Of a DNA stretch of 49,689 nt, positions 9,629 through 46,292 are shown one piece after another. Position 1 is the stretch's first letter, and the number at the start of each line of letters is the position of its first letter. The notes beneath the pieces are model-generated. The model saw nothing but the letters and a program-made list of their open reading frames with translations. It was not told the origin of the DNA and ran no database searches. This DNA is from Polyangia bacterium. GTDB lineage: Bacteria > Myxococcota_A > Polyangia > Haliangiales > JADYYK01. The DNA is taken from NCBI GenBank assembly GCA_044229835.1, contig JBGASF010000046.1, forward strand, positions 1 to 49,689, given 5' to 3'. Both the position numbers and the translations under genes were made by a program.

Positions 9629-9629
<1 letters not shown>
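8019..9629 (+). CDS. serA: D-3-phosphoglycerate dehydrogenase with C-terminal ACT domain.
   Basis: Full-length match in layout to SerA: NAD Rossmann motif GVVGLGNIGRLVA, catalytic region, C-terminal ACT. Good RBS. Confidence 0.9.
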
Positions 9630-12344
<2,715 letters not shown>

Positions 12345-16259: not shown

Positions 16260-17651
16260 ATGTGCGTCCTCATCATCGGCTCAGAGTCCTATCGCTTGTC
16301 GCTCACGATGGCGTGCAAGCAAGCGGGATGGGAGGTGTCCGCCGAGCCCGGACGGGCAAACGCGATCCTTTTGGATCCAACGCTGGTTCGCTGGGCCAAC
16401 GAACCAGCAGAGCGAATCGTCGCGCTAGTGATCCGCGCAAGGCAGTTCGCCCAAGCCAACAGATTATCCCCTCGGCAGACCTGGCTGGTGGCGCTCCTGT
16501 CCCAGTGGGGACCCCCTTGCCCTGACGACCTTGCCGATCCTGTTCCGGTTGAGAACTCGATTCCGGTCGTCGCCACGGGCAACGGTGCGGCCAACTCATT
16601 CTTGCAGCCGCCATTCAACTACCCGGCGATACTGATCGTCTACAAGGAGTTGGCCTCCCCACAGAGATTGGTGTTTCAGCGCTGGGTGCAGGACGGGGGA
16701 GGCGCCAATGGATGGCGGACGCCACTCGAGGTTGATCCCTCCCTGCGTGGAGTGGCGGCAAACAATCGCTCGAACATCGTCGAGTTGAACGGCGAACTTT
16801 ATCTCTACGTTGTTCGCAATGACTCCACTGTGGCGGAGTATCTCTACGACCGAGCAAACTCGTCGTTTTCTCTGGTCGGGACCGTCCAGGTTGGCGGTGC
16901 GTCTGTCAGGGCGATCGAGGGTTTTGCTGTCACGGCTGGTTACGAGAAGGGATATGCTCGCAAGATCTACGCCGTCTATCGGCCGGCGGCCGGTGGGGCC
17001 GTCGAGTTTCTCCGTAGAGATGGGGCGAATGCATGGGCCGCGCTCACGAATACTGTGTGGTCGACCATGCCCAGGCTGAGTTCGACGTTCATGCCTGGCA
17101 TCACCTATGTGCCATTCGATGAGGCGGTGCCCTCTGAAGGTCGATTCTATGTCCACACAACAAACGCAGGCTGTGTCTTCGGGAACTGCATTAGCTCCAT
17201 ATTTACTGAGGGCAACGATCCCGCCTCGTCCACGACACGACGTCTGCGGTTTGTGACGAGTGGTCTGGGTTCCGAGGCCGTGTTTCAGTTCAGCCAGCTC
17301 AACGGGCAAGAGAGTCTCTTGGCGGTGCCGTACGCAGTGTCGGTGGGGACGAGGCACGTGGCTGTGGCAGGCTCCGTGACTGGGGTGGCTTTCTACCCAT
17401 TCTGGGATGGCATCTTCAACGCAGGTACGACCGATCACGATGATTTCGTCACAGTCGGCCGCAACACGGCATGTGGAATCAAGTGCATCCCACCAGCGCT
17501 GACACCGAACCCATCCGTTGCCGATGGATGCTGCCCGGGCGGTGCAACGGGACCTGGTTTTGACAAAGACTGCACTCAGAACTACCTGCGCGACGTTGCC
17601 TTCTCGGGGAGCGGAGACTGGAGCGCCACAGCCTCGTGTCGGGCGCTGTAG
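16260..17651 (+). CDS. Hypothetical protein inside a low-GC patch (~58-60% GC against ~71% for the window).
   Basis: Long ORF with atypical codon usage for this genome. No signal peptide or recognised domain. Start uncertain. Confidence 0.45.
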   Translation: MCVLIIGSESYRLSLTMACKQAGWEVSAEPGRANAILLDPTLVRWANEPAERIVALVIRARQFAQANRLSPRQTWLVALLSQWGPPCPDDLADPVPVENSIPVVATGNGAANSFLQPPFNYPAILIVYKELASPQRLVFQRWVQDGGGANGWRTPLEVDPSLRGVAANNRSNIVELNGELYLYVVRNDSTVAEYLYDRANSSFSLVGTVQVGGASVRAIEGFAVTAGYEKGYARKIYAVYRPAAGGAVEFLRRDGANAWAALTNTVWSTMPRLSSTFMPGITYVPFDEAVPSEGRFYVHTTNAGCVFGNCISSIFTEGNDPASSTTRRLRFVTSGLGSEAVFQFSQLNGQESLLAVPYAVSVGTRHVAVAGSVTGVAFYPFWDGIFNAGTTDHDDFVTVGRNTACGIKCIPPALTPNPSVADGCCPGGATGPGFDKDCTQNYLRDVAFSGSGDWSATASCRAL

Positions 17652-19036
17652 TGGGTTGGCTCGGTTGCATTGCGGCGCTGCTCGCGGGGTGCTTGGGTGC
17701 GCTTTCTGGCTGCGGCGGCAAGGGCCGCCCTGCCACTCAGGATGGAGCGCTGACGGATGCCGGGGCCAGCGTCGACTCCGCCCAGTGTCCCACCGCCGAT
17801 GCGGCCTCATGCGCTGGCGAGTGGCCGCCTCTGACTGCGCCCGCGGCGGCCAGCTTGCAGGTGCCTTTCGAGGTCAAGTGGGCCTATGTCGAACCGCAAG
17901 GGACGGGTCTGTTCAACGTGGTCGTCCTCCCATCTGCGCAGAAGGTGGTGTTTCGCCAGGGGACCTCAGTGATTGTGTTGATGGGCCTCGACGGTGGCAA
18001 CATCCGGCGGTTTGGGCCAGTTGCAGGGGCCGACCTTGGTCTCAACATCGCTGCTGACGCGCGCGATGACTTCTACGTGGCTGGTGAGCAACAAATCTAC
18101 TCGTACTCAGCGTCTGGAACACTGCGTTGGACGACCGACCTGCCGGGGCCCTTTCCGGCAGTGAGTGGCTCACCTGGCATGGCTGGCTTCGCGATTCGCG
18201 GCGGGACTCTCTACGCGGGGGCCACTGACCGGCGCCTCCACGCGATCGATACGACAGACGGGCGAGAAAGGTGGAGCATACCGCTCGCTATCGAAGCCTC
18301 GCTCACCCATCCCGTGGGCCGCGGCGATACTCTCTTCGTTCCAGTTCTGGGAGGCGGCCTGGTTGCCGTCGACGCGACTTCGGGTGCGGTGAGATGGCAG
18401 GCCCCGTGTCCGCATCTCATTGCCCCCAACATCCCCATGCCGACGCGAAGCATGGTGCTCGGTGGATCATACGATTTTGGTGGAGTGATCCCGAAGGAGG
18501 AGACTCGGGTTTTTGCGCTCGGGAAGTGCGACGAGCTCACCACGCCGGTATCACTGAGGGGAAACCCGGACTGGTCGCTGGAGACGCGGAGCGGGGCGGT
18601 TCTGGCCAGAGTCGAGCAGCGCAACCACGCCGTGGTGGATTTTGCCCTGATCGATCTCGCATCCAATCGTGAGCTCGCTCGCCGCACCATCGGCGTCGAC
18701 GACGGCGTCCAGCGCACGTTCGCTGCGTATGTCGTCGCGATTGGCGACGACGACGTTGCTTACATCGTCGAGACCTATGTGCCGATCGGAGCGCCAGGAG
18801 AAGCCTCACGGTTGCATCGTCTGTCGCTACCGAGCCTGGCGTCGGTCGGCCCCCCCCTTGAAATCGGGGAGGGCGCCACCATAGGCTATGCCTCGGCCAT
18901 GACCGATGAGGGGCTCCTCATCGTGCCACTGGCCCGGCGAGTGGTCGCGGTGCAGACCCCAAGCCCAGGGCCACTCAAGGGAGCATGGTCGTTGTCCCAC
19001 GGTGACGCGCGCGCCTCCAAGTGGCTCGAGCCGTAG
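17636..19036 (+). CDS. PQQ-repeat beta-propeller lipoprotein (BamB-like fold), in the low-GC patch.
   Basis: Lipobox LLAGCLGALSGC. PQQ-type repeats (GTLYAGATDRRLHAIDTTDGRERWSIPL, LVAVDATSGAVRWQAP). 16-nt overlap with the upstream gene. Confidence 0.6.
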   Translation: MSGAVVGWLGCIAALLAGCLGALSGCGGKGRPATQDGALTDAGASVDSAQCPTADAASCAGEWPPLTAPAAASLQVPFEVKWAYVEPQGTGLFNVVVLPSAQKVVFRQGTSVIVLMGLDGGNIRRFGPVAGADLGLNIAADARDDFYVAGEQQIYSYSASGTLRWTTDLPGPFPAVSGSPGMAGFAIRGGTLYAGATDRRLHAIDTTDGRERWSIPLAIEASLTHPVGRGDTLFVPVLGGGLVAVDATSGAVRWQAPCPHLIAPNIPMPTRSMVLGGSYDFGGVIPKEETRVFALGKCDELTTPVSLRGNPDWSLETRSGAVLARVEQRNHAVVDFALIDLASNRELARRTIGVDDGVQRTFAAYVVAIGDDDVAYIVETYVPIGAPGEASRLHRLSLPSLASVGPPLEIGEGATIGYASAMTDEGLLIVPLARRVVAVQTPSPGPLKGAWSLSHGDARASKWLEP

Positions 19037-22575: not shown

Positions 22576-23691
22576 CTACGGCTCCTCGACGACCGCCGGC
22601 GGCACGCCCATGGTGTTGAACGGGCGCTCCTTGAGGATGCGGCTCATGGTCTTGAAGTCGTCGAACAGCTCGCGGTCGGCCAGCATGAGGCCGATGGTGC
22701 CCTCGGCGTCGGCGACGGCCTGGGTGATCTGAGCGGTCACCTTCATGATGCGGCGCGCCTCGTCGAGGGTGCCGCGCAGCGTGGCCAGGCCCGCCAGCAG
22801 CGCCTTGCGCTTGGCCGCCGGGAGCAGCCCGCCGAGGCGCGTGATGTTGGCCTGCAGCACCACGACCTTGCCGCGCATCTCGGTGATGTCGGCCTCGACC
22901 GCCTTCATGGCCTTCCTGAAGCGCGCCACCACCGCGCGCAGGCGGGGCAGCCGCTCGCCGGGCGCCAGCTCTTCCAGCAGCAGATCGCCCTCGTGCATGG
23001 CCTCGCGCACGTGGGCCACGATGCGGCTGACCTGGCCGCGCTCGGTGGGCAGCGACTGCAGGGTGTCCCACAGCGCCCACGCCGCGACCGCGAACTCGGC
23101 GAACGCCGGGCGCTGCTGCTCCACCGCGGCGCGCAGGATCTTCATGTTCTCCAGCGAGCGCGTCAGCAGCCGGTCGGTCGGCGCCGGGGTGACGCCGCAC
23201 ACCACGTCACCATCCTTCAGGAGTGGTCCCGGCTCGACCTCACGCGGCGGCGGCAGCACCTCGATGTACTGCGGCGCCAGGATCGAGCCCTGGTTGACGA
23301 AGAACTCGGCGTTCGTGCGCAGGTTGTCGCGCTCGCTCTGCTTGATCCACAGCGTCAGCAAGATCCGCGGCGCGCTGCTCTCGTGGCCGGCCTCGGCGGC
23401 GTCGCCGAACGCGGGCGGCTCGACCGGGCACACCCGGCGGTCGCGGCTGGCGAAGGCGACGCGCTCGACCTGGCCGATCTTCTTGCCCGAGACCCGCACC
23501 GCGGTGCCCACGCCCAGCTTGCCGATGCGCCCGAGCTCCATGGTGACCTGGACGCCGGGCCCGAAGTGCCGGCCCTCGATCAGCACGGTGGTGGCCATGA
23601 AGGCCGCCACCAGGCCGATGGCGACGGCGCCGACCACGAGGCGCAGGCTGTCCTCGTTGCGGCGCTTCTTCTTTTTCGGCGGCGTGGCCAT
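22576..23691 (-). CDS. MCE/MlaD-family protein (second paralogue, with long C-terminal helical region).
   Basis: N-terminal TM helix plus MCE domain (...VRVSGKKIGQVERV...). Confidence 0.7.
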   Translation of the reverse strand: MATPPKKKKRRNEDSLRLVVGAVAIGLVAAFMATTVLIEGRHFGPGVQVTMELGRIGKLGVGTAVRVSGKKIGQVERVAFASRDRRVCPVEPPAFGDAAEAGHESSAPRILLTLWIKQSERDNLRTNAEFFVNQGSILAPQYIEVLPPPREVEPGPLLKDGDVVCGVTPAPTDRLLTRSLENMKILRAAVEQQRPAFAEFAVAAWALWDTLQSLPTERGQVSRIVAHVREAMHEGDLLLEELAPGERLPRLRAVVARFRKAMKAVEADITEMRGKVVVLQANITRLGGLLPAAKRKALLAGLATLRGTLDEARRIMKVTAQITQAVADAEGTIGLMLADRELFDDFKTMSRILKERPFNTMGVPPAVVEEP

Positions 23692-23716
23692 GGCCCGGTT
23701 CAGCGGCGCTCGCTGC

Positions 23717-24733
23717 CTATTCCTTCCACAGGAACTTCCAGGGATTGCGCTTGAGGTCGCGCACCATCTCCTTGAGGTCGAGGTAGATGGCGTCGTCCCA
23801 CACGAAGGCGCCCGCGGTGCCCTTGCCGGCGCGGATGTGGTCGACCACGCTGCCGACCTTCTTGGTGATGCCGTTGACGTTCTTGGTGAGATCCGTGACC
23901 TGATCCAGCGAGGCCAGGATCTTGTCGCGATCCTCGGGTCGGATGATGCCGGTGGCGCGGATGACGCCGTCCATCGTCTTGTTGGCCTTGTTCATCACGC
24001 CGGGCAGCTCGCGGCTGGCGGTGGCGCTGATCGACTCCACGTTGGCGATGGTCCGTGACAGCCGCGCCGGGTTGGCGATCCCCTTGCGCAGGTCGCCAAT
24101 CAGCCCCGCACCCTGCTCGGTCAGCCCCTCGGCCTTCTGCAAGAGGCCCGAGATCTGCGCCTTGTTCTCGGTCAGCAGCGCGTTGACCGTGTTCACCGTG
24201 CTGGTCGAGTCCTCGATCAGCATGGTGATCTTCTCCTTGTTCTTCTTGAGCACCCACGACACGCCGTCGAGCACGTCGAACAGGCGCGCCACGATGAGAT
24301 CGGTGCGCGGCGGATCCTCGCCGTCGGCCTCGAACCCCGGCGGCATCGCCGGCTGATCGAAGGTCCCCGGGTTGATCTCGAGGTACTGCTCGCCCAGCAC
24401 GCCGGCGGTGTTGACGTAGAACTCGGCGTTCTGGCGCACGGTGTCCTTGACCCGATCCTCCAGCCACACCACCAGGCGGACATACTCGCGCTTGCCGGTC
24501 TTGGCCGAGACCTTGCCGCCGCGGAACTGCACGCTCTTGACCTTGCCGACCTTGATGCCCGAGACCTTGACCGGCGCGCCGGGGTGGATGTTGCCCGAGT
24601 AGCGGAACGACGCGTACACGGTGTAGCCATCCGACAGCGAGAAGTTGCCGAGGATGAAGATGAAGCCGCCGAGCAGGACCAGCGCGATCAGGATCATCGC
24701 GCCCACCTTGATCTCGAGCCCTCGTTCACGCAT
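23717..24733 (-). CDS. mlaD: MCE/MlaD-family substrate-binding protein.
   Basis: TM helix GAMILIALVLLGGFIFILG. MCE domain (VKVSGIKVGKVKSV...). Confidence 0.75.
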   Translation of the reverse strand: MRERGLEIKVGAMILIALVLLGGFIFILGNFSLSDGYTVYASFRYSGNIHPGAPVKVSGIKVGKVKSVQFRGGKVSAKTGKREYVRLVVWLEDRVKDTVRQNAEFYVNTAGVLGEQYLEINPGTFDQPAMPPGFEADGEDPPRTDLIVARLFDVLDGVSWVLKKNKEKITMLIEDSTSTVNTVNALLTENKAQISGLLQKAEGLTEQGAGLIGDLRKGIANPARLSRTIANVESISATASRELPGVMNKANKTMDGVIRATGIIRPEDRDKILASLDQVTDLTKNVNGITKKVGSVVDHIRAGKGTAGAFVWDDAIYLDLKEMVRDLKRNPWKFLWKE

Positions 24734-24742
24734 GCGTGCCTC

Positions 24743-25522
24743 TCAGAATCCCGGGGTTTCCATCGGGCCGTGCGACTGCCCGGTGATGAACTGCTGCACC
24801 ACCGGATCGGTGGAGGCGCGCAGCTCGGCCGGCGTGGCACAGACGTGCACCACGCCGCGATACAGGAAGGCGACCCGATCCGCGATCGAGAAGATCGAGG
24901 TCAGATCGTGCGACACCACGATGGACGTCACGCCCAGGGTGTCGGTCAGCTCGCGGATCAGCTTGTCGATGCGCCGCGCGCTGACCGGGTCGAGGCCGGT
25001 GGTCGGCTCGTCGAACAGGACGACCTCGGGGTCCAGCGTCAGGGTCCGCGCGATGGCGGCGCGCTTGCGCATGCCGTCGCCGAGGTCGGACGGCAGGCGA
25101 TCGGCGAACTCGCCCATGTGGACCTGCTCGAGGCGGCGCATGGCCTCGGTCAGGGCGCGCGCGCCGCGCAGCCCCTTGTGCTTGCGCAGCGGCAGCGCGA
25201 CGTTGTCGAGCAGCGTCATGGAGTCGAACAGCGTCGAGTTCTGGAACACCATGCCGCACTTCTTGCGCAGCGGGTACAGCGCGGCCTCCTCGAGATCCTG
25301 CACCGGCTGGCCGTCATAGAGGATCTCGCCGGCGTCGGCCTCGATGAGGCCGATGAGGTGCTTGATGGTGACCGACTTGCCGACGCCCGAGGTGCCGATG
25401 ATGAACATGACCTCGCCGCGCCCGATCTCGAGATCGATCCCGGTCAGCACGGCCTTGCCGCCGAACGCCTTCTCGACGCCGCGGAACACGATCTTGGGGC
25501 CGCTGTTGGAGGGCTCAGCCAT
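24743..25522 (-). CDS. mlaF: Mla-type ABC ATPase, subunit 2. Consensus Walker A/B and H-loop; deviant signature motif LGDGM.
   Basis: Real gene starts at [13 protein letters not shown] (ATGA overlap with mlaE); the upstream part of track ORF 24743..26398 is junk. Walker A GTSGVGKS, Walker B VVLFDEP, H-loop VVSHD, signature region [11 protein letters not shown]. Confidence 0.8.
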
Positions 25523-26316
25523 CAGCGCATCAGGTAGGTCATGAAGAAGTTGAGCAGCATGATCGAGATGGCCGCGGCGACGACGGCGTTGTTGACCGCG
25601 CGCCCGACGCCGATGGCGCCGCCCTTGACCGAGGTGCCGAAGTGGCAGCTGGTCAGCGCGATGGCCAGGCCGAACACGACCGCCTTGATGAGGCCGTGGG
25701 TGAAGTCCTCCAGGTGCAGCTGATCCTTCATGCCGTAGAACACGGTGGCGTACTCGACGTCGAGCAGGAGGTGCGAGAACAGGCCAGCGCCCAGCAGCGC
25801 GACCAGGTCGCCCATGATGACCAGGCAGACGATCGAGATCACCATCGCGACCACGCGCGGGACCACCAGGTAGCGCACCGGATCGATGGCCAGCGCGCGC
25901 AGGGCGTCGAGCTGCTCGGTGACCACCATGGTGCCGAGCTCGGCGGTGTTGTTGGCGCCGACGCGGCCGTTGAACATCAGGCCGATCAGCAGCGGCGCGA
26001 CCTCGCGCAGGGTGGCGTAGCCGGCGGCCCAGCCGATGATGCCGCGGGCGTTGAAGCGCTCCACGAAGATCCCGGCCTGGATGACCATGATGCCGCCGGT
26101 GAAGAAGGCGGTCAGCACCACGATGGGCACCGACTCGACGCCCATCTTGTAGAGGTTGCGCATGAGCTCGCGGGCGTCGAAGCGCGGCGGGATCAGCGCG
26201 CGCAGCACGCGCAGCAGGACCAGGGTGATGCCGCCGGCCTCGCGCGCGACCCCGAGGGCGCCGGCGCCGACCGCGGCCGACAGGTTGACGCTGGCGCGGC
26301 CGACGCGGCGGATCAC
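25522..26316 (-). CDS. mlaE: Mla-type ABC permease.
   Basis: MlaE/YrbE-like multi-TM protein. Couples by 4-nt overlaps to both flanking ATPase genes. Confidence 0.8.
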
Positions 26317-27050
26317 AGCGGGCCCTCGCTGGAGCCGGTGATGAACTGGCGCACCGCGGGGTCGTTCGACAGCGCGATCTCGGCGGCCTCGCCGTCATAC
26401 CTCAGCCGGCCCTTGTACAGCATGGCCAGGCGGCCGGCGTAGCCGCGCAGGGCGTCGACGTCGGACGACACCGCGACCACGGTGCAGCCGGTCTCGTCCT
26501 GCTCGGCCTTGAGCAGGTCGTAGATCTTCGAGGTCGTCACCGGGTCGAGGCCGGCGGTGGGCTCGTCATAGATCACGATGTCGGGCTGCGCGATCGACGC
26601 GCGCGCGATCCCGACCCGCTTCTTCATGCCGCCCGACAGCTCGGAGGGGAACTTGTGCTCGCTGCCGGCCAGGCCGACCGCGCGCAGGCGGCGCGCCACA
26701 CGGTCCTTGATCTCGCCGTCGGGCAGGCCGCCGCGGCGCACCAGCGGGAAGGCCACGTTGTCGCCCACGGTCATGAAGTCGAACAGGGCGTAGTTCTGGA
26801 ACAGCATGCCGATGCGCATGCGCAGCGCCATCAGCTCGTCCTCGCGCTGCTTGCTCAGCGCCACCCCGGCGACCGTGATCTCGCCGCGGTCGGGGCGCAA
26901 AAGGCCACACATCAGCTTGAGCAGGACGGTCTTGCCTGACGCACCGGGTCCAATCAGCCCCCAGCGCGCGCCCTTGGGCACATGCAGGTCGACCTGCTCG
27001 AGCAGGGGCGTGTGGCCGAAGCCCTTGGCCACTTGGCTGAACCGGATCAT
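26313..27050 (-). CDS. Mla-type ABC ATPase, subunit 1. Consensus signature LSGGM but H-loop His replaced (VAVSSDVD).
   Basis: Walker [10 protein letters not shown]-loop, LSGGMKKR, Walker B IVIYDEP, then S in place of the H-loop His. Confidence 0.75.
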
Positions 27051-27065
27051 CGGCGAACGCGGATA

Positions 27066-28171
27066 CTAACGTGATTTCGGTGCCGGTTGCGCGGATCCAG
27101 AGGCCTGGGTCACGGGCGGGCAGCCCAGCTGGGCGCGCAGCGCCGCCGCGCGGTCGCTGGAGGTCACCCGCTCGGGGTAGCGCCGGGCGTGCCGTGCCAG
27201 GGTGGCACAGGCGGCCCTGGGTTCGCCCCCGGCGGCCAGCGCGGTGGCGACCCAGACCGCGGCGTCGTCGCGCCGGGTCGAGTTGGGATAGTCGTCATAG
27301 GCGCGGCGGAAGTAGGCGAGCGCCTTGCCGGGGGCCTTCATGTCCTCGAGGGCGATGCGCCCGGCCTCGATGGCGGCGTCGGGCAGGTAGGGCGAGTTGT
27401 ACGACCCGATCATGCGCGCGGTCGCCTTGGTGCGCAGGAACTCCTCCAGGTGATCGATGGCCTCCTGGGGCCGGCCCAGGCCGCGCAGGATCTTGGCGGC
27501 GGTGCGCCAGGAGTCGTCGCGCAGGCCGGATTTCGGGTACTCCAGCGGCAGCCGGTCGTACAGCTTCAGGGCGCCTTCGAGGTCGCCGCGGTCCTGGGTC
27601 AGCAGGGCCGCCTCGAACAGCAGGTTGTCGCCCACCGTGGTGCCGGGCACCTGCGGCTCGAGCTCGAGCAGGATGGCCAAGAGGTGCGCCTGGTCGTGGC
27701 GGCGGCCCTCGCGCACCAGCACGCGCAGGGCGTCATCGGCCGCGGCCGAGTCGGGGTAGCCCAGGATGACCTTGTAGTGCAGCTCGTGGGCGCGCTGGTT
27801 CTGGCCGCTGTGCATCAGCAGATCGGCGGCGCGCTCCAGGGCGCGCGAGGCGGCGCGCCCGCGGTTGCCGACCATGTCGGGGATGACCAGGAAGGCGGCC
27901 ACGGCCTCATTGATCCGCATCAGGCGCGCCAGCGCCATGCCACGGCCCAGCGCGGCCGGCCCGCACACCTTGCGCAGGGTCCAGTCGCTGACGTCGCGCG
28001 GCGCGCCCTGGCAGCGCCTGTCGACCAGGCCGGAGTACAGCTTCAGGGCGTCGTCCCAGCGGCCCTGATCGCCGGCGCGCTCGGCCTCGGTCAGCTCGCG
28101 CGGGACCGCGCTGGGGCCACAGCCGGCCAGCGCGGCGCAGACCAGCAGCACGACGCCGAGACGGCCGGGCT

Positions 28172-28175
<4 letters not shown>
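27066..28175 (-). CDS. TPR-repeat lipoprotein.
   Basis: Lipobox LAGCG. Multiple TPR-like helical repeats. Coupled to the ltaE stop. Confidence 0.6.
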
Positions 28176-29242
<1,067 letters not shown>

Positions 29243-29273
29243 GCCGCGCAGGGTAGCAGAAGCCGGCGGTGAC

Positions 29274-30730
29274 CTAGCGCACCTCGAGCACCAGCACGCC
29301 GCGCCCCTTGGTGCCCAGGAAGACGCGCCGGGTCACCGGATCCAGCGCCACCGCGCGGGTGTCGTCGACCGCCACGCCGGCCGGGGCGCCCATCACGATG
29401 ACCAGCGCGCGGTCGCGCTTGAAGCGGGCGGCGCCCTTGGAGGTCGCCATCCAGACGTCGCCGCCGGCGTCGACGGCCAGCGAGCGGATGTCGTTCGAGG
29501 CCAGCGCCGAGTTCGTCGTGGTCAGCCCGTAGACCTGGGTCAGCATGCCGCCGGCGGCCAGCTGGTCGCCGAACAGGCCGTTGCCGTCGGTGGCGGCCCA
29601 CAGCAGCGAGCGCGCGCCGTCCCAGGCCAGATCGCGCACCTTGTCGTCGCCCGGCAGCAGGCTGGTGCTGGCGTTCGACATCAGATCGTAGAGGTCGTTG
29701 GAGGCCGCGATGTTGCGCGGCGCCGGCGCCCCGACCTCGACCACGGCCTCCAGCGTGAAGTCGCCCAGCGGCCCCAGCGCCCCGCCGAAGACGCCGGCGC
29801 CGTCCAGGGGCAGCACCCCGCGCGAGGTGGCCAGCCACAGCGAGGCCTGATCGAAGGGCGCCATCGCGAACACCGTGGGCGGCGTCCCGCTGGTGAAGGC
29901 GACCGCGAAGTCGAGCACGTTGCGCACCGGCGCCGCGGGATCGGTGCAGTCGACCCGCATCAGGTCGTTGGCGGTGACCGCGCCGAAGTAGGCGCGCGGC
30001 GAGCGCGGGTGGAAGAACACCGAGCGCCAGCGCGCGTTGCTGGGCAGGCCGCCCGAGAACGGCGCGCCCCCGGCCACGTCCTGCCAGGTCGCGCTGGGCG
30101 GCGCGATCGAGGTCAGCGGCGCGCTCATGGCGCCGTCGTCGGTCGCCACCCACAGGCGGCCCGCGCCGAGGTCGAGGTCGTTGACGTCGTTGCGCCCGGC
30201 GGCGCCCAGCGCCACCAGCTCGACGAAGGGCGCGGCGCGGAAGGCCGGGATGTCGACCATGCGCACGATGGGGGCGGGGCCCGCCACCGTGGCCTGCACG
30301 CGCGCGACATAGGTGGTGGCCTCGGCGGCGACCGCGCTGATGGCCGGGGCGGTCGGCCCCGGCAGGACGTTGCCCGCCGGGGTCAGCGACCAGGTCACCG
30401 TGATGGGCCCGAACGGCGAGCACGAGCCCACGGTGTCGAGCGCCACGGTGTCGCCCAGCAGCACCGGCGTCGGGGTGCCGCCCGCGGTCTTGACCTGGCC
30501 GTTGACGCGCACCACCAGCGTCAGGTCGGTGGTGCAGCCGGCGTCGGCGCCGCCGCCGTCGTCGGGGCCGCCATCACCAGGGCCGCCGTCGCCGGGGCCG
30601 CCGTCGCCGGGGCCGCCGTCGTCGGGCGCGGCGTCGCGCACGCGCACGCCGGAGCTGTCGAACGAGCAGCCTGCCGCCGCCGCCGCCCAGCACGCCAGCA
30701 CCAGCACGAGCGCGCGCGCCGGCGTCGTCA
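29274..30730 (-). CDS. Secreted lipoprotein with (DGGPG)n repeat, Ig-like region and a C-terminal beta-propeller/Reg_prop-like region.
   Basis: Real start is GTG overlapping the upstream TGA (GTGA). Lipobox [11 protein letters not shown]. 15-bp tandem repeat x4 encodes [20 protein letters not shown]. The upstream part of track ORF 29274..31889 is off-frame readthrough. Confidence 0.55.
30560..30632. repeat. 15-bp tandem repeat (~GGCCCCGGCGACGGC-like) x4-5 inside the lipoprotein gene.
   Basis: Direct reading; encodes DGGPG repeats. Confidence 0.7.
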
Positions 30731-31783
30731 CTTGTCCTCGGTCGCCGCCGCCGACGACGCGCGCACCACGTTGCCCAGCGAGATCCGGCTGGTCAGCAGC
30801 GCGATCGCCCCGGTGCCCATGTACCAGAGCACCTGGGTGGCGTGGCTGAACACCGCGAAGATCTGGCCGCCGTGCTCGACCACGTCCTTGGCCAGGTACA
30901 GCTTGAGGCCGACGATGGTGAACCAGGTGTACTGCCCGACCAGGCCGGGCGAGTTGGGCAGCGTGATGCCGACCGCGACCAGCCCCATCACGGTGAAGGC
31001 CGCGATCACCGACAGCCCACCCGGGCCGAGATCGAAGCCGCGCGCCAGCACCCACACGCTGAGGCCGTTGGCGCTCCAGTACACCACCGACATGGCCACG
31101 AAGATGGCCAGATCGCGCGGATCCTTGAGCACGCGGAAGCCCCGGATGAGCGCGTGCATCTTGTCGCCCAGCTTCTCGGCCAGCCGGGGCGCGAAGCGCT
31201 CGATCAGCGTGAGGCGCATGGTCCAGCGCACCGTCCAGCTGGGCGCGCTGAGCATGAAGATGAGGAACAGCATGGCGGCGCCGAAGATGGCCAGGCTGAT
31301 GTAGGCCGTCGGCATCATCCAGCTCGGCGCGGGCACGCTGCTGGCGGCGCGGATCGAGCAGGTCACGAACACCAGCAGCGAGATCAGCAGGCCATCGACG
31401 ATGCGCTCGACCGCGACGGTGCCCAGCGCGGAGGCCATCGACACCTTGCCGGGCTCGCGGATGAGGTACGGCCGCACGAACTCGCCCAGGCGCGCCGGCA
31501 GCGCCAGGATGGCCATGAAGCCCACCGTGCTGACCGACATCAGCCGGCCGAAGGGCAGCTCGACGCCGATCGGCCGCAGCAGGTACTTCCAGCGCCAGGC
31601 CCGGAACAGGTGCACCACGACCATGAGCGCGAACATCTGCGCCAGCGCCGGCCACAGCCGGTCCATGTCGACCGACTTCCAGGCCAGCTGCAGGTGGTGC
31701 CACTGATCGCCACGGAAATAGGCCAGCCAGGCGAACAGCGCCAGCATGGCGAGCGAGAGCGCGAGGTTGATCGCGAGCTTCAA
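30728..31783 (-). CDS. Lysylphosphatidylglycerol-synthase-TM-like / UPF0104 flippase-like integral membrane protein.
   Basis: [23 protein letters not shown]... and about 8 TM helices resembling the LPG_synthase_TM family. TTG start just after the upstream stop. The N-terminal half of track ORF 30728..32620 is junk. Confidence 0.6.
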
Positions 31784-31791
31784 AGCGGGGA

Positions 31792-33093
31792 CTACAGCCG
31801 GATGACCTTGCCGGGGGCCTGCTCGCGCACCTGCTTGGTGGCGTTGCGGGTGTCGATGACCAGGCGCGCCTCGCGCACCACGCGGCCATAGTCGACCACG
31901 GTGTGGTCGGTCACGATGACCACGGCGTCCCAGCTGGCCAGATCGGTCAGCGGCACCGAGGTCAGCTTGTGGTGCGGCAGCTCCAGGGTCGGCACGTGTG
32001 GGTCGTGGTACTGCACCTCGGCGCCGCGCTCCATCAGGAGCTCGATGACGTCGAGCGCCGGCGACTCGCGCATGTCCTCGATGTCGCGCTTGTACGAGAC
32101 GCCGAGCACCAGCACCTTGGCGCCCTTGACCGACTGCTTGCGGTCGTTCAGCGCGTCGCGCACGCGCTCGACCACGATGGCCGGCATGCCCGAGTTGATC
32201 TGGTCGGCCAGCTCGATGAAGCGCGCGTTGTACTTCATGGTCTTCATCTTCCACGACAGGTACAGCGGGTCGACCGGGATGCAGTGGCCGCCCAGGCCCG
32301 GGCCGGGGAAGAAGGGCATGAAGCCGAACGGCTTGGTCGCCGCGGCCTCGATGATCTCGAAGGTGTCGAGGCCGAGCTTGCCGGCCATGATGGCGATCTC
32401 GTTGACCAGGCCGATGTTGACGGCGCGGAAGGTGTTCTCCAGCAGCTTGACCATCTCGGCGGCGTCGGTCGACGACACCGGGACCACGCGGTCCATGACC
32501 TCGCCGTACATGGCGCGACCGGCCTCCATGCACTTGGGGGTGAAGCCGCCGATGACCTTGGGCGTGTTCTTGGTCTGGTACTTGGCGTTGCCCGGATCGA
32601 CGCGCTCGGGCGAGAAGCACACGAAGAAGTCGACGCCGACCTTGCGGCCGCCCTGCTCCAGGCGCGGCACCAGGACCTCGCGGGTGAAGCCGGGGAAGGT
32701 CGTCGACTCCAGGATGATGAGCTGGCCCGGGCGCAGGCGCGGCGCGATGTCCTCGGCCGCGGCCATGATGAAGGAGTTGTCGGGGTCCTTGGTCTTGTTG
32801 AGCGGCGTGGGCACGCAGATGACGATGACGTCGGCCTCGCCGAGCACGTTGGGATCGCTGCTGGCGGTCAGCTTGCCGGAGTCGACGTGGCTGGCGAGGA
32901 CGGCGTCGGGGATGTCCTTGATGTAGGACTTCTTGGCCTTGACGCCGGCGATCTTGCGCTCGTCCTTGTCATAGCCGGTGACCGAGAAGCCGGCGCGGGC
33001 GATCTCGGTGCACAGCGGCAGACCGACATAGCCGATCCCCACGACGGCGACCTTGGCGGTGTGCGACTGGATTCGTTCGAGGAGGGCGCTCAT
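31792..33093 (-). CDS. UDP-sugar (UDP-glucose / UDP-N-acetyl-mannosamine) 6-dehydrogenase family protein.
   Basis: Rossmann motif KVAVVGIGYVGLP, catalytic Cys region. Full-length nucleotide-sugar dehydrogenase. Start ATG (MSALLERIQ) or TTG at 33117. Confidence 0.85.
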   Translation of the reverse strand: MSALLERIQSHTAKVAVVGIGYVGLPLCTEIARAGFSVTGYDKDERKIAGVKAKKSYIKDIPDAVLASHVDSGKLTASSDPNVLGEADVIVICVPTPLNKTKDPDNSFIMAAAEDIAPRLRPGQLIILESTTFPGFTREVLVPRLEQGGRKVGVDFFVCFSPERVDPGNAKYQTKNTPKVIGGFTPKCMEAGRAMYGEVMDRVVPVSSTDAAEMVKLLENTFRAVNIGLVNEIAIMAGKLGLDTFEIIEAAATKPFGFMPFFPGPGLGGHCIPVDPLYLSWKMKTMKYNARFIELADQINSGMPAIVVERVRDALNDRKQSVKGAKVLVLGVSYKRDIEDMRESPALDVIELLMERGAEVQYHDPHVPTLELPHHKLTSVPLTDLASWDAVVIVTDHTVVDYGRVVREARLVIDTRNATKQVREQAPGKVIRL

Positions 33094-33138
33094 CGGGAGG
33101 CGAAGTCCTTTCTGCAATTCGGTTGCATCAAGCTGGGG

Positions 33139-34990: not shown

Positions 34991-36056
34991 TTACTTCGTG
35001 ACCTTGAAGGGGCGGGGGTGCTTGGTGGTGCCGGCTTCGGTGGTGAGGGTGAAGGTGGCGTCGGTGGTGTCGGGGGGGATCATGACGGTGACCGAGGTGT
35101 CGCCGGTGCGGGCCAGGACCTTGAGGGTGCGATCGCCGTAGGTGACCTTGGTGGCCTCGGTGAAGCCGGTGCCGGTCAGGGTCACGCGGGTGGTGGCGGG
35201 GCCCGAGGCGGGGGCGAAGTCGAGCAGCTTGGGCGGGGCGAGGACGACGAAGGGCGTCCCGAAGTCCACCACGGCCTTGCCGCGGCGGTGCTGGAACTTC
35301 GCGGTGACCGCGTTCTTCGGCAGCGTGGCCACGATGGACTTGGCGGTCAGGCGCTGGATCTCCAGCGGGCGGGTGCCCAGCCAGAGCTCGTCGCCGGCCT
35401 GGAAGTTGGCGCCGGTCAGCGTGACGGTGACGCCGGGCAGGCCGCGCGGCGGCTCGAAGCCGGTGATGGTCGCGGGCAGCACCAGCGTGAAGGGGCCGCT
35501 GGCGACGGCGCGCCCGCTGGGGTTCTCGATGCTGAACAGCTCGCCGGTGGCGGCGTCGGTGGGGACCTGGACCTTGAGCGTGGTCGGGGTGCGCTCGCGG
35601 ACGATCAGCGCGGTCTTGCCATAGCTGACCTTGTCGGTCGCGCTGGTCTCGGCCAGCGTGAGGGTGACCACGGTGCCGGGCGGGCCCGCCGAGGGCACGA
35701 AGGTCGACAGCACCGGGGCCGCGGGCAAGAGCTCGAAGGCGGGCTGCACCAGCAGCGGGCGGCTGCTGCCGCGCGTGATGGCCAGCTCGCCGCTGGCGGC
35801 GCCCCTGGGGATGGTCAGCTCGATCCGCGTCGGCTGGATGGTCGCGCTGACCGGCGCGCCGCCCACGCTGACGACGTCACCGGGCAGAAAGCCCGAGCCG
35901 TCGAGCACCACCTTGGTGCCAGGCGGCCCCTTCAGCGGGGCGAACCCGGTGACCCGCGCCGGCTCGACGATGGAGACCCAGCGCCCCGTCCACGGCCATG
36001 CCGCAGCCACACTCGAGGTCGCCAGCAGGACCCCGAGAACCGCCAGCCTTTTCATC
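34991..36056 (-). CDS. Secreted protein with tandem IPT/TIG (Ig-like) domains.
   Basis: Signal peptide MKRLAVLGVLLATSSVAAAW. Repeated ...TGF.P..G.PGT.V.L.G.GF... Ig-like units. GGAGG RBS. The track ORF's extended N-terminus overlaps a tRNA and is rejected. Confidence 0.7.
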
Positions 36057-36074
36057 GCAAACCTCCGCAAGGGG

Positions 36075-36146
36075 AGGTGCCGCCCGGATTCGAACCGGGG
36101 AATAGAGGCTTTGCAGGCCTCCGCCTTACCACTTGGCCACGGCACC
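36075..36146 (-). tRNA. tRNA-Cys (anticodon GCA).
   Basis: 72 nt. 7-bp acceptor stem GGTGCCG/CGGCACC, D-loop AGTGGTAA, anticodon loop CUGCAAA, T-arm GGTTCGAATCC, discriminator U. CCA not encoded. Confidence 0.85.
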
Positions 36147-36260
36147 GTGGTCAGAAACGAGGCGCAGTATATGCGGGGAGGGCAGGGTGTCAACGCCGCG
36201 ATGCAACTGAGTTATCGTAGCGACCAGGCCAGCGCAGGCCACGACAGGACCCGACAGGAC

Positions 36261-37364
36261 ATGGACTCTCCCATCCAGGATGCCGAGGTGGTGCGTCGCG
36301 GCGCCGAGCTGGCCGAGCTGGGCCGGCAGCTGGCGCGTCTCGGCCTGAGCCCCGAAAAGGTGCTGACCTTCACCGGGGCGCTGTCACTGGGTGACCTGTC
36401 GCGCGCCATCGACGACACCGCCCGGCGCGCCAGCAAGCTGCCCCGACCGCGCGGGCTGGGGGCGCTGATCGCGCTGCTGTGCTGTGGCCTGGCGCAGTCG
36501 GCGGCCGAGCTGGAGGCCGTGCTGGGGGCGCCCGCGCTGGCGCTCCTGGAGGCGGTCGGCGTGCTGGAGCGCGCGGGCGCCGACCTGGTGCCGCGGCTGG
36601 CGCTGGTGCCGGCGCAGCGCCGCCTGGGGGCGCGCGCCGGGCGCGCGGTCGGGCCGGTGGTGCTGGTCGCCCATGATCTGCACCGGCTGCGCTTCGAGTC
36701 GCTGGCGGTGATGGCGCCCGATCTGTCGTCGGAGCTGATGCTGCGCGCCAGCATCACGCGTGCGGGCAGCTGGCTCGACGTCGGCACCGGCAGCGGGGTG
36801 GTCGCGCTGGCGGCGGCGCTGCGCGGCACGCCGCGGGTGATCGCGGCCGATCTCAACCCGCGGGCGGGCGCCTTCGTGCGCCTGGGTGCGGCGCTGAACG
36901 GGGTCGCCGGCGCGGTGACCGCGCTGGAGTCCGACCTCATGCAGGCGGTGCCGCCGGGGCGGCATGACGTCATCACCTTCAACTCGCCGCTGCTGTTCGG
37001 CATGGGCGACCTGCTGTGGCGCAACACCGCGGAGGGGCCGGCGCTGCTGCGCCGCTTCTTCGATGACCTCGCGCCCCGGCTGGCCGGTGAGGCGCTGATC
37101 CACGCCCAGCTGCCGCACGACGAGCGCGTGCTGCCCGCGCGGGTGCCGATGACCGATCCCGCGCGCTTCCACGGCCTCAGCCTGCGCTACGAGCTGGGCG
37201 AGGAGTGGGCCCAGGGCCTGCTCTGGCTGACGCCCGCCGGCGGCGGCCGCGCCATCTGGGTCGAGGAGCTGCACGAGCCCACGCCCGAGCAGCTGTTCCT
37301 CGATCGCGAGCAGCTCGAGATCGCGCTGGCGCGCAACGAAATGCGCTCGCCCGTGGCCACGTAG
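36261..37364 (+). CDS. Class I SAM-dependent methyltransferase (MTS/PrmC-like small-domain type).
   Basis: Motif I LDVGTGSGVVALAAA. Post-motif DLNPRA reminiscent of N-methyltransferases. Real start MDSPIQ... (ATG 36261) within track ORF 35631..37364. Confidence 0.6.
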   Translation: MDSPIQDAEVVRRGAELAELGRQLARLGLSPEKVLTFTGALSLGDLSRAIDDTARRASKLPRPRGLGALIALLCCGLAQSAAELEAVLGAPALALLEAVGVLERAGADLVPRLALVPAQRRLGARAGRAVGPVVLVAHDLHRLRFESLAVMAPDLSSELMLRASITRAGSWLDVGTGSGVVALAAALRGTPRVIAADLNPRAGAFVRLGAALNGVAGAVTALESDLMQAVPPGRHDVITFNSPLLFGMGDLLWRNTAEGPALLRRFFDDLAPRLAGEALIHAQLPHDERVLPARVPMTDPARFHGLSLRYELGEEWAQGLLWLTPAGGGRAIWVEELHEPTPEQLFLDREQLEIALARNEMRSPVAT

Positions 37365-39445: not shown

Positions 39446-41878
39446 CTAGTAGTCGCCGCTGCCGCCGCCCTGCGACAGGCCGCGCAGCAGGTTCTGCGCC
39501 GCGACGTCGACCGGGCCCAGCAGGTCGACCACGTCCTCGACGTGCTTGCCGAACTCGGCGGACTGGTTGTACATGCGCTTGATGCGCTTGAACTCGGTCT
39601 CGCCGACGCCGAAGCCGGCGTAGTCGCGGCCGTCGCCGCGCCAGCCGATGGTGCCGTTGAAGAACTCGAGGATCTCGCGCGGGGTGCAGTCGGTGCGCGA
39701 GCTCATCGCGGCGCGCGCCAGCGCGACCACCTCGCGGACCGACGAGGTCAGGAGCATCACGGTGGCGTAGCGCTCGCCCGGCTTCTTGCCCGCGGGCGCC
39801 GGCGCCAGCCCGGCGCCCTTGAGCTTGGCGTCGTCGCGCGCGACGCGATCGAGCTGCTCGCCGAGCTTGAGGTACTCCTCGCGGCGCTGCGCCACCTGCT
39901 TCTGCAGCGCGTAGGCCTTGGTGGCGTAGGTCTCGACCGAGACGCGGTACTTGGTGGCCTGCTCCTTGAGCTTGAGCGCCCCGCTGACCTGCGAGATCTG
40001 CGCGCAGTGGGTCTCGACCGCGTAGATCTTGGCGCGCAGCGAGTTGACCTCGCTGGCGAAGTAGAAGTCGGCGATGGCGTTCATGGCGCCGCCGATGCTG
40101 GTCGGCAGCGTGAAGCCGCCGTCCTGCTCGTACGAGGTGTTGCGCCCGTCCTCGCCCGGCTTCTTGGAGACGTCGAGATCGGTCTTGGTCTGGACGTTGC
40201 GCACGATGATGGCGCCGTCCTTGTTGGTGGTGGTGTAGGTCGGGTTCCAGCGCGCCGGCTTGCCCGCCATGATGGCGCGCTTGTTGCGCCCGGCGTTGAT
40301 GGTGGCGCCCATCATGTTGACCTTCTCGGTGGCGTTGGCGATGGCCGCGGGGGCGCCGTTGACCACCGCGGCGGTGGTGTCGATGGCGCTGCCGACCTGC
40401 TTGATGAAGGCCTTGGTCTTCTCGATCTCGCCCATGCGCTCGCGCGCGCCGTCGGCCTCGTGGTTCTTCTTCTCCTTGTCGAGCTCGAGCATGTGCTGCT
40501 GGAAGCCGAGGAAGTCGGCCTGCATGGCCTTGTGCGCCATGGTGGCCTCCATGGCGGAGGTGGTCACGTCGTGGCCCTGCGAGGGCTCGGCCAGGTGCTC
40601 GGAGGCGTCGCGCGAGCCGGCGTTGTAGAGATCGCGGATGCGCTCGCCGACCGCGCCCGCGCCGGTGGCGGCGACCCCGGCGCCGGAGTCGCTGGCGTGG
40701 CCGAGCTCGCGGGTCAGGCCGGCGACCATGGCCGACACGTTGTGGCCGATGCCGAGCGCGTTCATCTGGCCCTGCAGGCGCGTCATCGAGCCCCACACCG
40801 CGTTGGCCTGCGGCACCCAGGCGTTGAACCCGGTGAACTGCTGCTCCTCGGTGGTGCGGTCGCTGATGAGCTGGCGCAGCTTGCCCTCGAGGATCGGGAT
40901 GGCCTCGCCGGCCTGCTGCTTCTGCCAGTACATGTGCGAGCCGAACATGCCCTCGCCGCTGATCTTCTTGTTCTTCTCGATCTGGTTCTGCAGGTAGGTG
41001 CGGCCCTTCTCGATGGCCGAGAAGTCGGGCGCGACCTGGTGCAGCTGCAGCTCGTCGGGCGTCATGTGCAGGATCGACAGCTGCTTGCCCTCGTCGGCCA
41101 GCTCGACGGCCTCGCTGGCCGACTGCTTGAGCAGGGCGCCGCTGTAGCCGGCCTCGCCGGCGTGGATCTCCTGGTTGCCGTGGATCGGCATGGCCTCGGT
41201 GGGGCCGCCGATGCCGGGATCGGCGCCGACGTTGGCGTTGACGTTCTCCTTGCGCATCATGCGCGCCACGCCGCTGGCGCCGGCCGACACCTGCGCGGGC
41301 GCGCCCAGCACCATGCGGTCGGCGGCGGCGTCGGCCTCGAGCTCGAAGGCGTCACCGGGGGTCGACACCTGGGCCTTGCCGGCGGGCACCGGGGCGGCGC
41401 CGCGCTGCTGCACGGTGTGGGCGACCTCGTGCGCGAGCAGGGCCTCTCCGCCGCGCGAGCCCGGCGTGTACTCGCCGGCGCCGAAGTGGATGTCCTGGCC
41501 GAACGCGAAGGCACGCGCGCCCAGGGCGTCGGCGGCGCCGGCCGACTCCGCGCCGGTGTGCACGCGCACGCCGCCGAGGTCGGTCCCCAGCGAGCCCTCG
41601 AACTTGCTGCGCAGGCCGTCGGGCAGCTGCACGCCGCCGCCGGTGGGCACGCTGTCGACCGCGCCGGCGCTGGTGTCGGCGCCGGGGGCGGAGGCGGCAG
41701 CGCCGTCCTTGGCCTGGCGCTGTACGATCCCGTCGGCGAGGGTGCGCCGTCCCGGGGGCGCGCCGTTGCTGTTCTCGGGCGACTGCTTGGACTCGACCTC
41801 GTGGTTTGCCGACTGCTGATAGCGCATGGCCGCTGCTAGAGCAGCCGGCGTGCCCACAGGGGCCCACGCGGTTTCCAC
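39446..41878 (-). CDS. Large DUF4157 (zincin-like, HExxH) domain protein with about 600 aa of uncharacterised C-terminal region; candidate polymorphic-toxin/eCIS-type effector.
   Basis: Region LPDGLRSKFEGSLGTDLGGVRVHTGAESAGAADALGARAFAFGQDIHFGAGEYTPGSRGGEALLAHEVAHTVQQRG matches the DUF4157 consensus including HExxH. Start GTG 41878 or ATG 41827. Confidence 0.65.
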   Translation of the reverse strand: METAWAPVGTPAALAAAMRYQQSANHEVESKQSPENSNGAPPGRRTLADGIVQRQAKDGAAASAPGADTSAGAVDSVPTGGGVQLPDGLRSKFEGSLGTDLGGVRVHTGAESAGAADALGARAFAFGQDIHFGAGEYTPGSRGGEALLAHEVAHTVQQRGAAPVPAGKAQVSTPGDAFELEADAAADRMVLGAPAQVSAGASGVARMMRKENVNANVGADPGIGGPTEAMPIHGNQEIHAGEAGYSGALLKQSASEAVELADEGKQLSILHMTPDELQLHQVAPDFSAIEKGRTYLQNQIEKNKKISGEGMFGSHMYWQKQQAGEAIPILEGKLRQLISDRTTEEQQFTGFNAWVPQANAVWGSMTRLQGQMNALGIGHNVSAMVAGLTRELGHASDSGAGVAATGAGAVGERIRDLYNAGSRDASEHLAEPSQGHDVTTSAMEATMAHKAMQADFLGFQQHMLELDKEKKNHEADGARERMGEIEKTKAFIKQVGSAIDTTAAVVNGAPAAIANATEKVNMMGATINAGRNKRAIMAGKPARWNPTYTTTNKDGAIIVRNVQTKTDLDVSKKPGEDGRNTSYEQDGGFTLPTSIGGAMNAIADFYFASEVNSLRAKIYAVETHCAQISQVSGALKLKEQATKYRVSVETYATKAYALQKQVAQRREEYLKLGEQLDRVARDDAKLKGAGLAPAPAGKKPGERYATVMLLTSSVREVVALARAAMSSRTDCTPREILEFFNGTIGWRGDGRDYAGFGVGETEFKRIKRMYNQSAEFGKHVEDVVDLLGPVDVAAQNLLRGLSQGGGSGDY

Positions 41879-41967
41879 GGGTTACCGCGGGTTGCCCCCT
41901 GGCCCAGCATGGCCTGGTCCGTGAACCACCCGCGCTGGTGCAGCCCACGGGGGCGACCGCCACAGCG

Positions 41968-46170: not shown

Positions 46171-46292
46171 GTCCGCACGTTAGCACGGCCTCGGTTGACG
46201 CCCGCTCAGGAAGCGGTCAACCTAATCGCCCCGTTTGGCTGGACGCGCATCGCTAGAACAGCCCCGGGACGATAGCGCTGGGAGGGGATCTG

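Follow-up and report, generated by a model that had tools for sequence, protein, structure and literature searches.

The operon analysed here is predicted to encode a lipid transporter of the Mla/MCE type, and its motor is likely, in our judgement, to be an obligate heterodimer of two different ATPases with one consensus and one degenerate ATP site. It lies in a 49.7-kb stretch of DNA from a Polyangia bacterium (contig JBGASF010000046.1), the whole of which is called the window below, and it consists of six co-directional genes on the minus strand (22576-28175), in the order TPR lipoprotein, A1, Ea, A2, MCE1 and MCE2. Here A1 and A2 are the two ATPases, both similar to MlaF, Ea is the single permease of the MlaE family, and MCE1 and MCE2 are two different MCE proteins. 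On the whole, the heterodimer is the best explanation of the evidence presented below, and the predicted asymmetric system appears to be conserved across several orders of Myxococcota.

It has long been asked why transporters of the ATP-binding cassette (ABC) superfamily evolve a non-hydrolytic ATP site and keep it, and nearly all studies of this question concern type IV exporters such as TAP, CFTR, MRP1 and TM287/288. The operon would represent the same solution, found independently in a structurally unrelated class, the MlaFE/MCE lipid transporters, in which to our knowledge every characterised member (MlaF2, MceG2) has a symmetric motor. It would also point to an envelope-lipid machine, so far uncharacterised, with a wide distribution in Myxococcota, a group with unusual outer-membrane lipid biology. 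In addition, natural variants exist, namely two ways to disable one site, two permeases versus one, and a tandem-fused MlaF, and these make the role of a degenerate site testable.

Complementary deviations in two MlaF-like ATPases

The assignment of the cluster comes from the family matches of its products. The permease (264 aa, GTG start, 25522-26316) matches PF02405 at 4e-68 over 211 of the 212 profile positions, and reaches 199.8 bits with TIGR00056, just below the cut-off of 212.2. The two MCE proteins, MCE1 (338 aa, 23717-24733) and MCE2 (371 aa, 22576-23691), match PF02470 at 1.5e-16 and 2.1e-10 respectively, and the two ATPases, A1 (245 aa, 26313-27050) and A2 (259 aa, 24743-25522, with its ATG at 25522), match ABC_tran at 9.5e-32 and 2.4e-29. 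MlaF is the top NCBIfam model for both ATPases, with 172 and 201 bits against an equivalog cut-off of 441, so they are better regarded as members of the MlaF family than as MlaF orthologues. Judged by the permease, by the MCE proteins and by the lineage of the ATPases alike, the cluster is predicted to be a transporter of the Mla/MCE type (type VIII ABC). This confirms a sequence-only reading made earlier on the same DNA, which had seen here an Mla-like transporter with two distinct ATPase genes, a permease and two MCE proteins. The same reading had placed 4-nt overlaps on both sides of the permease gene. Actually, the stop of A1 and the GTG start of the permease do overlap by 4 nt (GTGA), but the stop of the permease and the ATG of A2 overlap by only 1 nt (TGATG). 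Pfam domains of STAS/MlaB, MlaC and MlaA were found neither in the operon nor in the open reading frames (ORFs) of the window that were scanned.

The two ATPases are 40% identical to each other in a gap-free alignment, and each of them aligns without gaps to the solved MlaF chains 7D06 (A. baumannii) and 6XBD (E. coli), with E-values from 1e-45 to 1e-53. The positions of the motifs are therefore unambiguous, and the deviations described below are not motif residues that are merely shifted. In A1, the signature LSGGM (residues 138-142, 26625-26639, minus strand as for all motifs here) is the MlaF consensus, but the H-loop reads VSSDV (residues 194-198, 26457-26471), with Ser196 in place of the switch His, where A. 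baumannii MlaF reads ivshdv. The Walker A motif GPGASGKT of A1 (residues 34-41, 26928-26951) keeps Lys and Thr and has Ala in the fourth position, which is usually Gly. The Walker B motif IVIYDEP (residues 158-164, 26559-26579) keeps Glu163, the residue that is Asp (DDP) in orthologues of the Bradymonadales type, and the Q-loop Gln is present. The last residue of the protein corresponds to residue 252 of MlaF, and the long C-terminal extension is absent. In A2, the Walker A motif GTSGVGKS (25373-25396) and the Walker B motif VVLFDEP (25004-25024) are consensus, the Q-loop Gln is present, and the H-loop VSHDL (residues 203-207, 24902-24916) has its His205, but the signature reads LGDGM (residues 147-151, 25070-25084), with Gly148 followed by Asp149 in place of the first Gly of LSGGM, where E. 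coli MlaF reads pselsggm. Both halves of the earlier description, that is, a consensus LSGGM with a lost H-loop His in A1, and an intact Walker A/B and SHD with the signature LGDGM in A2, are thus upheld by the alignments to solved MlaF.

It is established that nucleotide-binding domains (NBDs) dimerise head to tail, and each ATP site is made of the P-loop side from one NBD plus its partner's signature (PMC7756269). With this geometry, the defects of A1 and A2 would fall in the same composite site, which is made of the Walker A, Walker B and H-loop of A1 and the signature of A2. The other composite site, made of the P-loop side of A2 and the signature of A1, is fully consensus in its motifs. 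Because the defects are complementary, there would be no consensus site in a homodimer of either A1 or A2, and exactly one in the A1-A2 heterodimer. The sequence-only reading had spoken of one canonical and one fully degenerate site; the placing of both defects in one composite site agrees with our analysis, while the words "fully degenerate" go too far. In A1, the Lys of Walker A, both the Asp and the Glu of Walker B and the Gln of the Q-loop are present, so the impaired site probably keeps its ability to bind ATP.

The deviations were then followed in relatives. A scan of species-representative genomes gave 80 loci that were fetched from Haliangiales/Kofleriaceae, Polyangiales, Bradymonadales and unclassified Myxococcota metagenome-assembled genomes (MAGs), and 79 A1 orthologues and 47 full-length A2 orthologues from them were aligned. 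A2 is present in 49 of the 80 loci, which shows that the pair does occur at orthologous loci, a point that the earlier reading had proposed to check. Among the A1 orthologues, none is fully consensus. Twenty-two of the 79 (L001-L022; Haliangiales, Kofleriaceae and Polyangiales) have Walker-B Asp-Glu together with an H-loop Ser, and the remaining 57 have Walker-B Asp-Asp, with the catalytic Glu changed to Asp, together with an H-loop His; not one of the 79 combines Glu to Asp with His to Ser. Their signature is near-consensus throughout (ISGGM in one, LSGG[MQ] in the other 78). In A2, the third signature position is Asp in all 47 orthologues, in the form of LGDGM, LSDGM, FGDGM, IGDGL or VGDGL, and all 47 have a consensus Walker A, Walker-B Asp-Glu and the H-loop His. 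The same holds in wider samples: the SSD H-loop, LSGGM and DEP occur in each of the closest 120 database homologues of A1 (64-100% identity), and 120 further A2-type cluster representatives all have FDEP and SHD, with the signature Asp in 119 and His in one. The same site is therefore degenerate by two different substitutions across the lineages, which points to selection that maintains the asymmetry of the ATP sites, rather than to drift.

In a neighbour-joining tree, computed without bootstrap or other support values, A1 and A2 each make up a clade of their own, the branching order within the two is similar, and A2 is the nearer of them to the MlaF of E. coli and A. baumannii. Over 44 complete loci, A1, A2, Ea and Eb (the last a second permease of the relatives, described below) have correlated pairwise distances, with r = 0.90-0.95, and with r = 0.92 for A1 versus A2; this fits co-inheritance, although shared phylogeny alone would also give such values. 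The mean pairwise distance is larger in A1 (0.47) than in A2 (0.36), and this faster evolution of A1 is as expected for a subunit with a relaxed catalytic site of its own. As a separate observation, the A2 orthologue of L009 (9362-10115) is broken into two tblastn segments and has garbled motifs in a single frame, which indicates either a frameshift or an assembly error.

Permease genes in relatives and in the window lineage

A feature that the sequence-only reading did not contain is that the relatives carry two different permeases, one of which appears to have been lost in the lineage of the window. In 48 of the 49 loci carrying A2, the gene order is (TPR)-A1-Ea-Eb-A2-MCE(-MCE), with two MlaE paralogues, Ea and Eb, placed between the ATPases. 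The two paralogues share about 33-37% identity, and twenty alignment columns discriminate them cleanly. The window permease has the Ea state in 19 of these twenty columns and the Eb state in none, which rules out that it is a chimera of Ea and Eb.

Eb was not found in the whole window. The single-permease arrangement is shared by L001, by L081-L084 (separate assemblies) and by L088, whose A1 is 88% identical and in which an ATPase N-terminus follows directly after the Ea stop. Eb is present in L090-L092 (75% identity) and in L085 (68-74% identity). In L085, Eb has ATGA overlaps at both ends, and the flanks of the cluster are syntenic with the window, with a UDP-glucose dehydrogenase on one side and a biotin-lipoyl protein on the other. 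The presence of Eb in syntenic relatives, taken together with the single-permease strains, indicates that Eb was cleanly excised in the recent ancestry of the window lineage.

Among strains of the single-permease lineage, the ratio of nonsynonymous to synonymous substitution rates (dN/dS) is 0.03-0.08 for A1, 0.03-0.05 for Ea, 0.09-0.11 for A2, 0.02-0.05 for MCE1 and about 0.2 for MCE2. This shows that A1, Ea, A2 and both MCE genes are still under purifying selection after the loss of Eb. That A2 was retained after this loss speaks against its being dependent on Eb alone, and in favour of the same permease being served by both ATPases. Most likely, the asymmetric ATPase pair now drives an Ea homodimer in the window lineage.

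Two side observations concern the permeases and the space next to them. Residues 121-146 of the window permease (25879-25956, minus strand), lie between the predicted transmembrane helices TM2 and TM3, where MlaE has its coupling helix, and differ there from the two-permease relatives that are nearest, which have MTVTEQLDGLRA; the Val and Ala involved are the Eb state, and also the Ea state of Polyangiales. The change is a weak hint of adaptation to the docking of both ATPases after the loss of Eb. In L030, an extra ORF of about 200 aa (9341-9970, plus strand) is placed between Eb and A2, as in the corresponding gaps of 650-750 nt in other loci of the Bradymonadales type; it has a signal peptide (MKYRWLIFFAVFLFAADA), a C-terminus ending in ...LWGF and no Pfam match. 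A role as a small beta-barrel partner in the outer membrane is possible for its product.

The proposed motor and its alternatives

In the proposed motor, a 1:1 heterodimer of A1 and A2 would sit on a permease dimer, which would be Ea-Eb in most lineages and probably Ea2 in the window lineage. ATP would be hydrolysed at the P-loop site of A2, completed by the LSGGM of A1, so that A2 is the predicted catalytic subunit. The site made of the A1 P-loop and the A2 signature is predicted to be non-catalytic, with ATP bound stably and turned over slowly or not at all. It may serve as a hinge or a regulator that keeps the NBDs joined or gates the cycle, as in the heterodimeric type IV exporters. The MlaF dimer is known to be stabilised by MlaB and by a C-terminal handshake (PMC7790496), and this clamp of the canonical MlaF2B2 appears to be absent in the present system. 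The degenerate site could take its place, a proposal made in view of the early end of A1 and of the missing STAS gene. The usual form of the system in Haliangiales/Kofleriaceae, Polyangiales and Bradymonadales, with A1, A2, Ea, Eb and two MCE proteins, would be the ancestral one. Physical heterodimerisation, hydrolysis at one site, the Ea2 stoichiometry and the lipid substrate are what we infer here from the sequences. More tentatively, it is possible, although we would not go so far as to call it probable, that there is a Myxococcota-wide class of MCE transporters that is asymmetric throughout (A1-A2, Ea-Eb, MCE1-MCE2), in which the degenerate site is a permanent ATP-bound hinge replacing the MlaB/handshake clamp and one ATP is used per cycle. 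Such a fully asymmetric machine might move lipids through the MCE tunnel with a directional bias, at the cost of one ATP per cycle.

The same loci could be read in other ways. In the order of the genes, A1 is next to Ea and A2 is next to Eb, which would suit two alternative homodimeric motors, with dimers of A1 and of A2 seated on dimers of Ea and of Eb respectively and the MCE proteins shared, or else a motor that is swapped according to conditions. The occurrence of A1-Ea without A2 nearby at some loci, of A1 alone at L011, L019 and L020, and of clusters that are often split or rearranged (L005 and L079) would agree with such motors. However, a homodimer of A1 would have two sites without the His (or the Glu), a homodimer of A2 would have two signatures containing Asp, and it is only A1 with A2 that gives a consensus site. 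Moreover, A2 would be orphaned in the window lineage, where it is nevertheless kept without Eb, with its start overlapping the stop of Ea (TGATG) and with a dN/dS of about 0.1, so that homodimeric motors seem quite improbable to us. We also regard it as unlikely that the heterodimer exists but has two active sites, with Ser196 of A1 and Asp149 of A2 tuning hydrolysis and the asymmetry being kinetic only. The ATP-binding residues of A1 are indeed intact, as is the catalytic Glu in the window lineage, and substitutions of the H-loop residue by Gln or Asn in ABCC1 sometimes keep transport (PMC7756269). Against this, the same site has lost its catalytic Glu in the sister lineages (57 of the 79 A1 orthologues), the partner signature is altered in all the A2 homologues, giving the classic pattern of impaired hydrolysis, and A1 evolves faster than A2. 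Finally, since one of the two permease genes of the relatives is missing, the loss of Eb might have disabled the whole system, and the odd motifs might be the onset of pseudogenisation. Such a decay of the operon has very little probability, as the motif deviations are ancient and conserved far beyond the window lineage, at least six assemblies have all the frames unbroken, and the selection analysis contradicts it, with a between-strain dN/dS of 0.02-0.11 for A1, the permease, A2 and MCE1 and about 0.2 for MCE2.

There are, on the other hand, several points that weigh against an obligate A1-A2 heterodimer as described above. In about 16 loci, mostly from freshwater MAGs (L027, L028, L031, L035, L040, L041, L046, L048, L049, L051, L052, L058, L063, L071, L074 and L078), the TPR gene, an A1' with the Walker B DDP, and Ea are followed by unrelated genes, and no Eb, A2 or MCE gene is found within 7 kb. 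In these lineages either the operon has been split or the system has been reduced, and A1' might act without A2; the cluster evidently splits easily, as at L005-L008, L006, L018, L022 and L079. In addition, hydrolysis may be lowered by the changes of His to Ser and of Glu to Asp without being abolished. The absence of Eb outside the window is seen in an indirect way: among the top 120 homologues of Eb there is no protein from the 8.02-Mb contig (GCA_963853155.1) on which the operon is found, which suggests absence from the genome without proving it. As for the giant ORF downstream in L028, it was considered as a possible large MCE protein and is ruled out, being PutA.

Partner proteins, neighbouring genes and known systems

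The first gene of the conserved cluster (27066-28175, minus strand) encodes a predicted lipoprotein of 369 aa with Pfam TPR repeats and a lipobox recognised by eye at its N-terminus; there are also weak matches to the YbgF and BamD models. A TPR homologue stands directly upstream of A1 in most of the related loci, including loci that were missed by tblastn but are positive for Pfam TPR. The lipoprotein is a candidate outer-membrane or periplasmic partner of the transporter. MCE1 has an N-terminal transmembrane helix, an MCE domain and a C-terminal extension of about 200 aa; its residues 4-232 are weakly similar to the M. smegmatis Mce1 chain 8fed_B, and a faint precomputed match to Helical_needle is present. 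MCE2 is a divergent second MCE protein, with about 23% identity to MCE1, and it shares with MCE1 the hydrophobic N-terminus, as read from its residues, and the C-terminal extension of about 200 aa. The extensions, the weak 8fed_B and faint Helical_needle matches and the conserved TPR lipoprotein, taken together, suggest the architecture of a bridge or tunnel rather than an MlaC shuttle.

The neighbourhood upstream of the operon (28172-33117, minus strand) is common to the window and to L085 (1-5438), the 68-74% identical relative. It contains genes for a UDP-glucose/GDP-mannose dehydrogenase, for a membrane protein of the LPG_synthase_TM family and for a GntG-family pyridoxal-phosphate-dependent (threonine-aldolase-like) enzyme, the last being directly upstream of the TPR gene. 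A link of these genes to the synthesis of envelope lipids or glycolipids is possible. Elsewhere in the window, an ORF of 865 aa (46257-48854, plus strand) encodes a bacterial protein that is like the Major Vault Protein (shoulder PF11978, 8.9e-27; Vault_3 repeat, 4.1e-09), and a protein of 811 aa (39446-41881, minus strand) has an eCIS_core domain (2.5e-28), named for extracellular contractile injection systems. The segment 16000-19000 has a G+C content of 0.62, compared with about 0.70-0.75 elsewhere in the window, and may be acquired DNA; the ORF at 17636-19036 encodes a BamB/PQQ beta-propeller, and the neighbouring ORFs have no Pfam match. The sole match in an Rfam scan of the window is a tRNA gene (36075-36146, minus strand, 68.3 bits), which lies inside an opposite-strand stop-to-stop span (35625-37364) of a methyltransferase-like ORF, so that the true start of this ORF is probably downstream of the tRNA.

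Among the known systems, MlaFEDB of E. coli and A. baumannii (MlaF2E2D6B2; 6XBD, 7D06) shares with the cluster a permease of the MlaE family, an ATPase of the MlaF-like fold, an MCE protein with an N-terminal transmembrane helix, and the signature LSGGM, which is kept in A1. It differs in having an MlaF homodimer with two consensus sites, whereas here two diverged ATPases have complementary defects. It also differs from the present cluster with its two MCE genes with C-terminal extensions, its conserved TPR lipoprotein and its ATPases lacking the long C-terminal extension. Judged by its genes, which lack a homodimeric MlaF, and by the absence of MlaB, MlaC and MlaA from the scanned ORFs of the window, the cluster is not a canonical Mla system.

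The mycobacterial Mce1 and Mce4 systems (YrbEA/B, Mce A-F heterohexamer; 8FED) resemble the cluster in being asymmetric overall, in having multiple MCE genes whose products carry long helical C-terminal parts, and in their heterodimeric permeases, to which the Ea/Eb of the relatives correspond. A pair of the YrbEA/YrbEB type is not in the window, which has one MlaE gene, but is present as Ea and Eb in the 48 related loci. In Mce1, MceG serves as a homodimeric ATPase, only the permeases and the MCE proteins are heteromeric, and there are six Mce genes (PMC9882608). The MceG homodimer is shared between systems, while here two dedicated ATPases are predicted to be heteromeric with one degenerate site, and there are two MCE genes instead of six. 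The cluster is therefore not a Mce system of the mycobacterial type.

Within the MlaF lineage, a search with A2 of all representatives also detected tandem-fused ATPases (P0245-P0248, 546-581 aa; L093, 7001-8668), which likewise hold NBDs of this lineage as an obligate asymmetric pair. The signature of their C half lacks the first Gly (VSAGE, ISSGQ or ISNGE), while the N half is all consensus and so are the other motifs of the C half, without the Walker-B or H-loop defect seen in A1. They are ruled out as fusions of A1 with A2 in the Rosetta stone sense, since their halves form clades of their own, which shows an independent duplication. In the one context examined, P0246 is an orphan beside mreBCD-pbp2-rodA, with no MlaE or MCE gene nearby.

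The closest parallel in the motor itself is found in the type IV exporters with a degenerate site (TM287/288, BmrCD, TmrAB, MsRv1273c/72c, TAP1/2, CFTR and MRP1), in which the catalytic Glu (changed to Asp) and/or the switch His is missing from one NBD and the signature of the partner is deviant (PMC7756269; PMC12038006); in MsRv1273c, the residues of the degenerate site are Asp497 and Gln528 (PMC12038006). The sequence-only reading had stated that such asymmetry is known from exporters of the TAP, CFTR and TM287/288 kind and not from the MlaF type. The two papers agree with the first part, and for the second, no report of a heterodimeric or degenerate MlaF or MceG, or of Mla in Myxococcota, was found in the literature searched, the coverage of which is incomplete. 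The present system shares with these exporters the combination of one impaired and one consensus site, here seen from sequence alone, and the A1 (DDP) and A2 (FGDGM) of the Bradymonadales type are an exact copy of their Glu-to-Asp pattern. The exporters have an unrelated transmembrane fold and transport mode, whereas the present system has a type VIII MlaE with an MCE ring and NBDs separate from the transmembrane domain, and its degeneracy appears to have arisen independently within the MlaF lineage. Among ABC importers, the CUT2 sugar importers, for example RbsA/RbsC, combine a fused two-NBD ATPase with a homodimeric permease, which shows that an asymmetric motor on a symmetric permease, such as that proposed for the window lineage, has a precedent.

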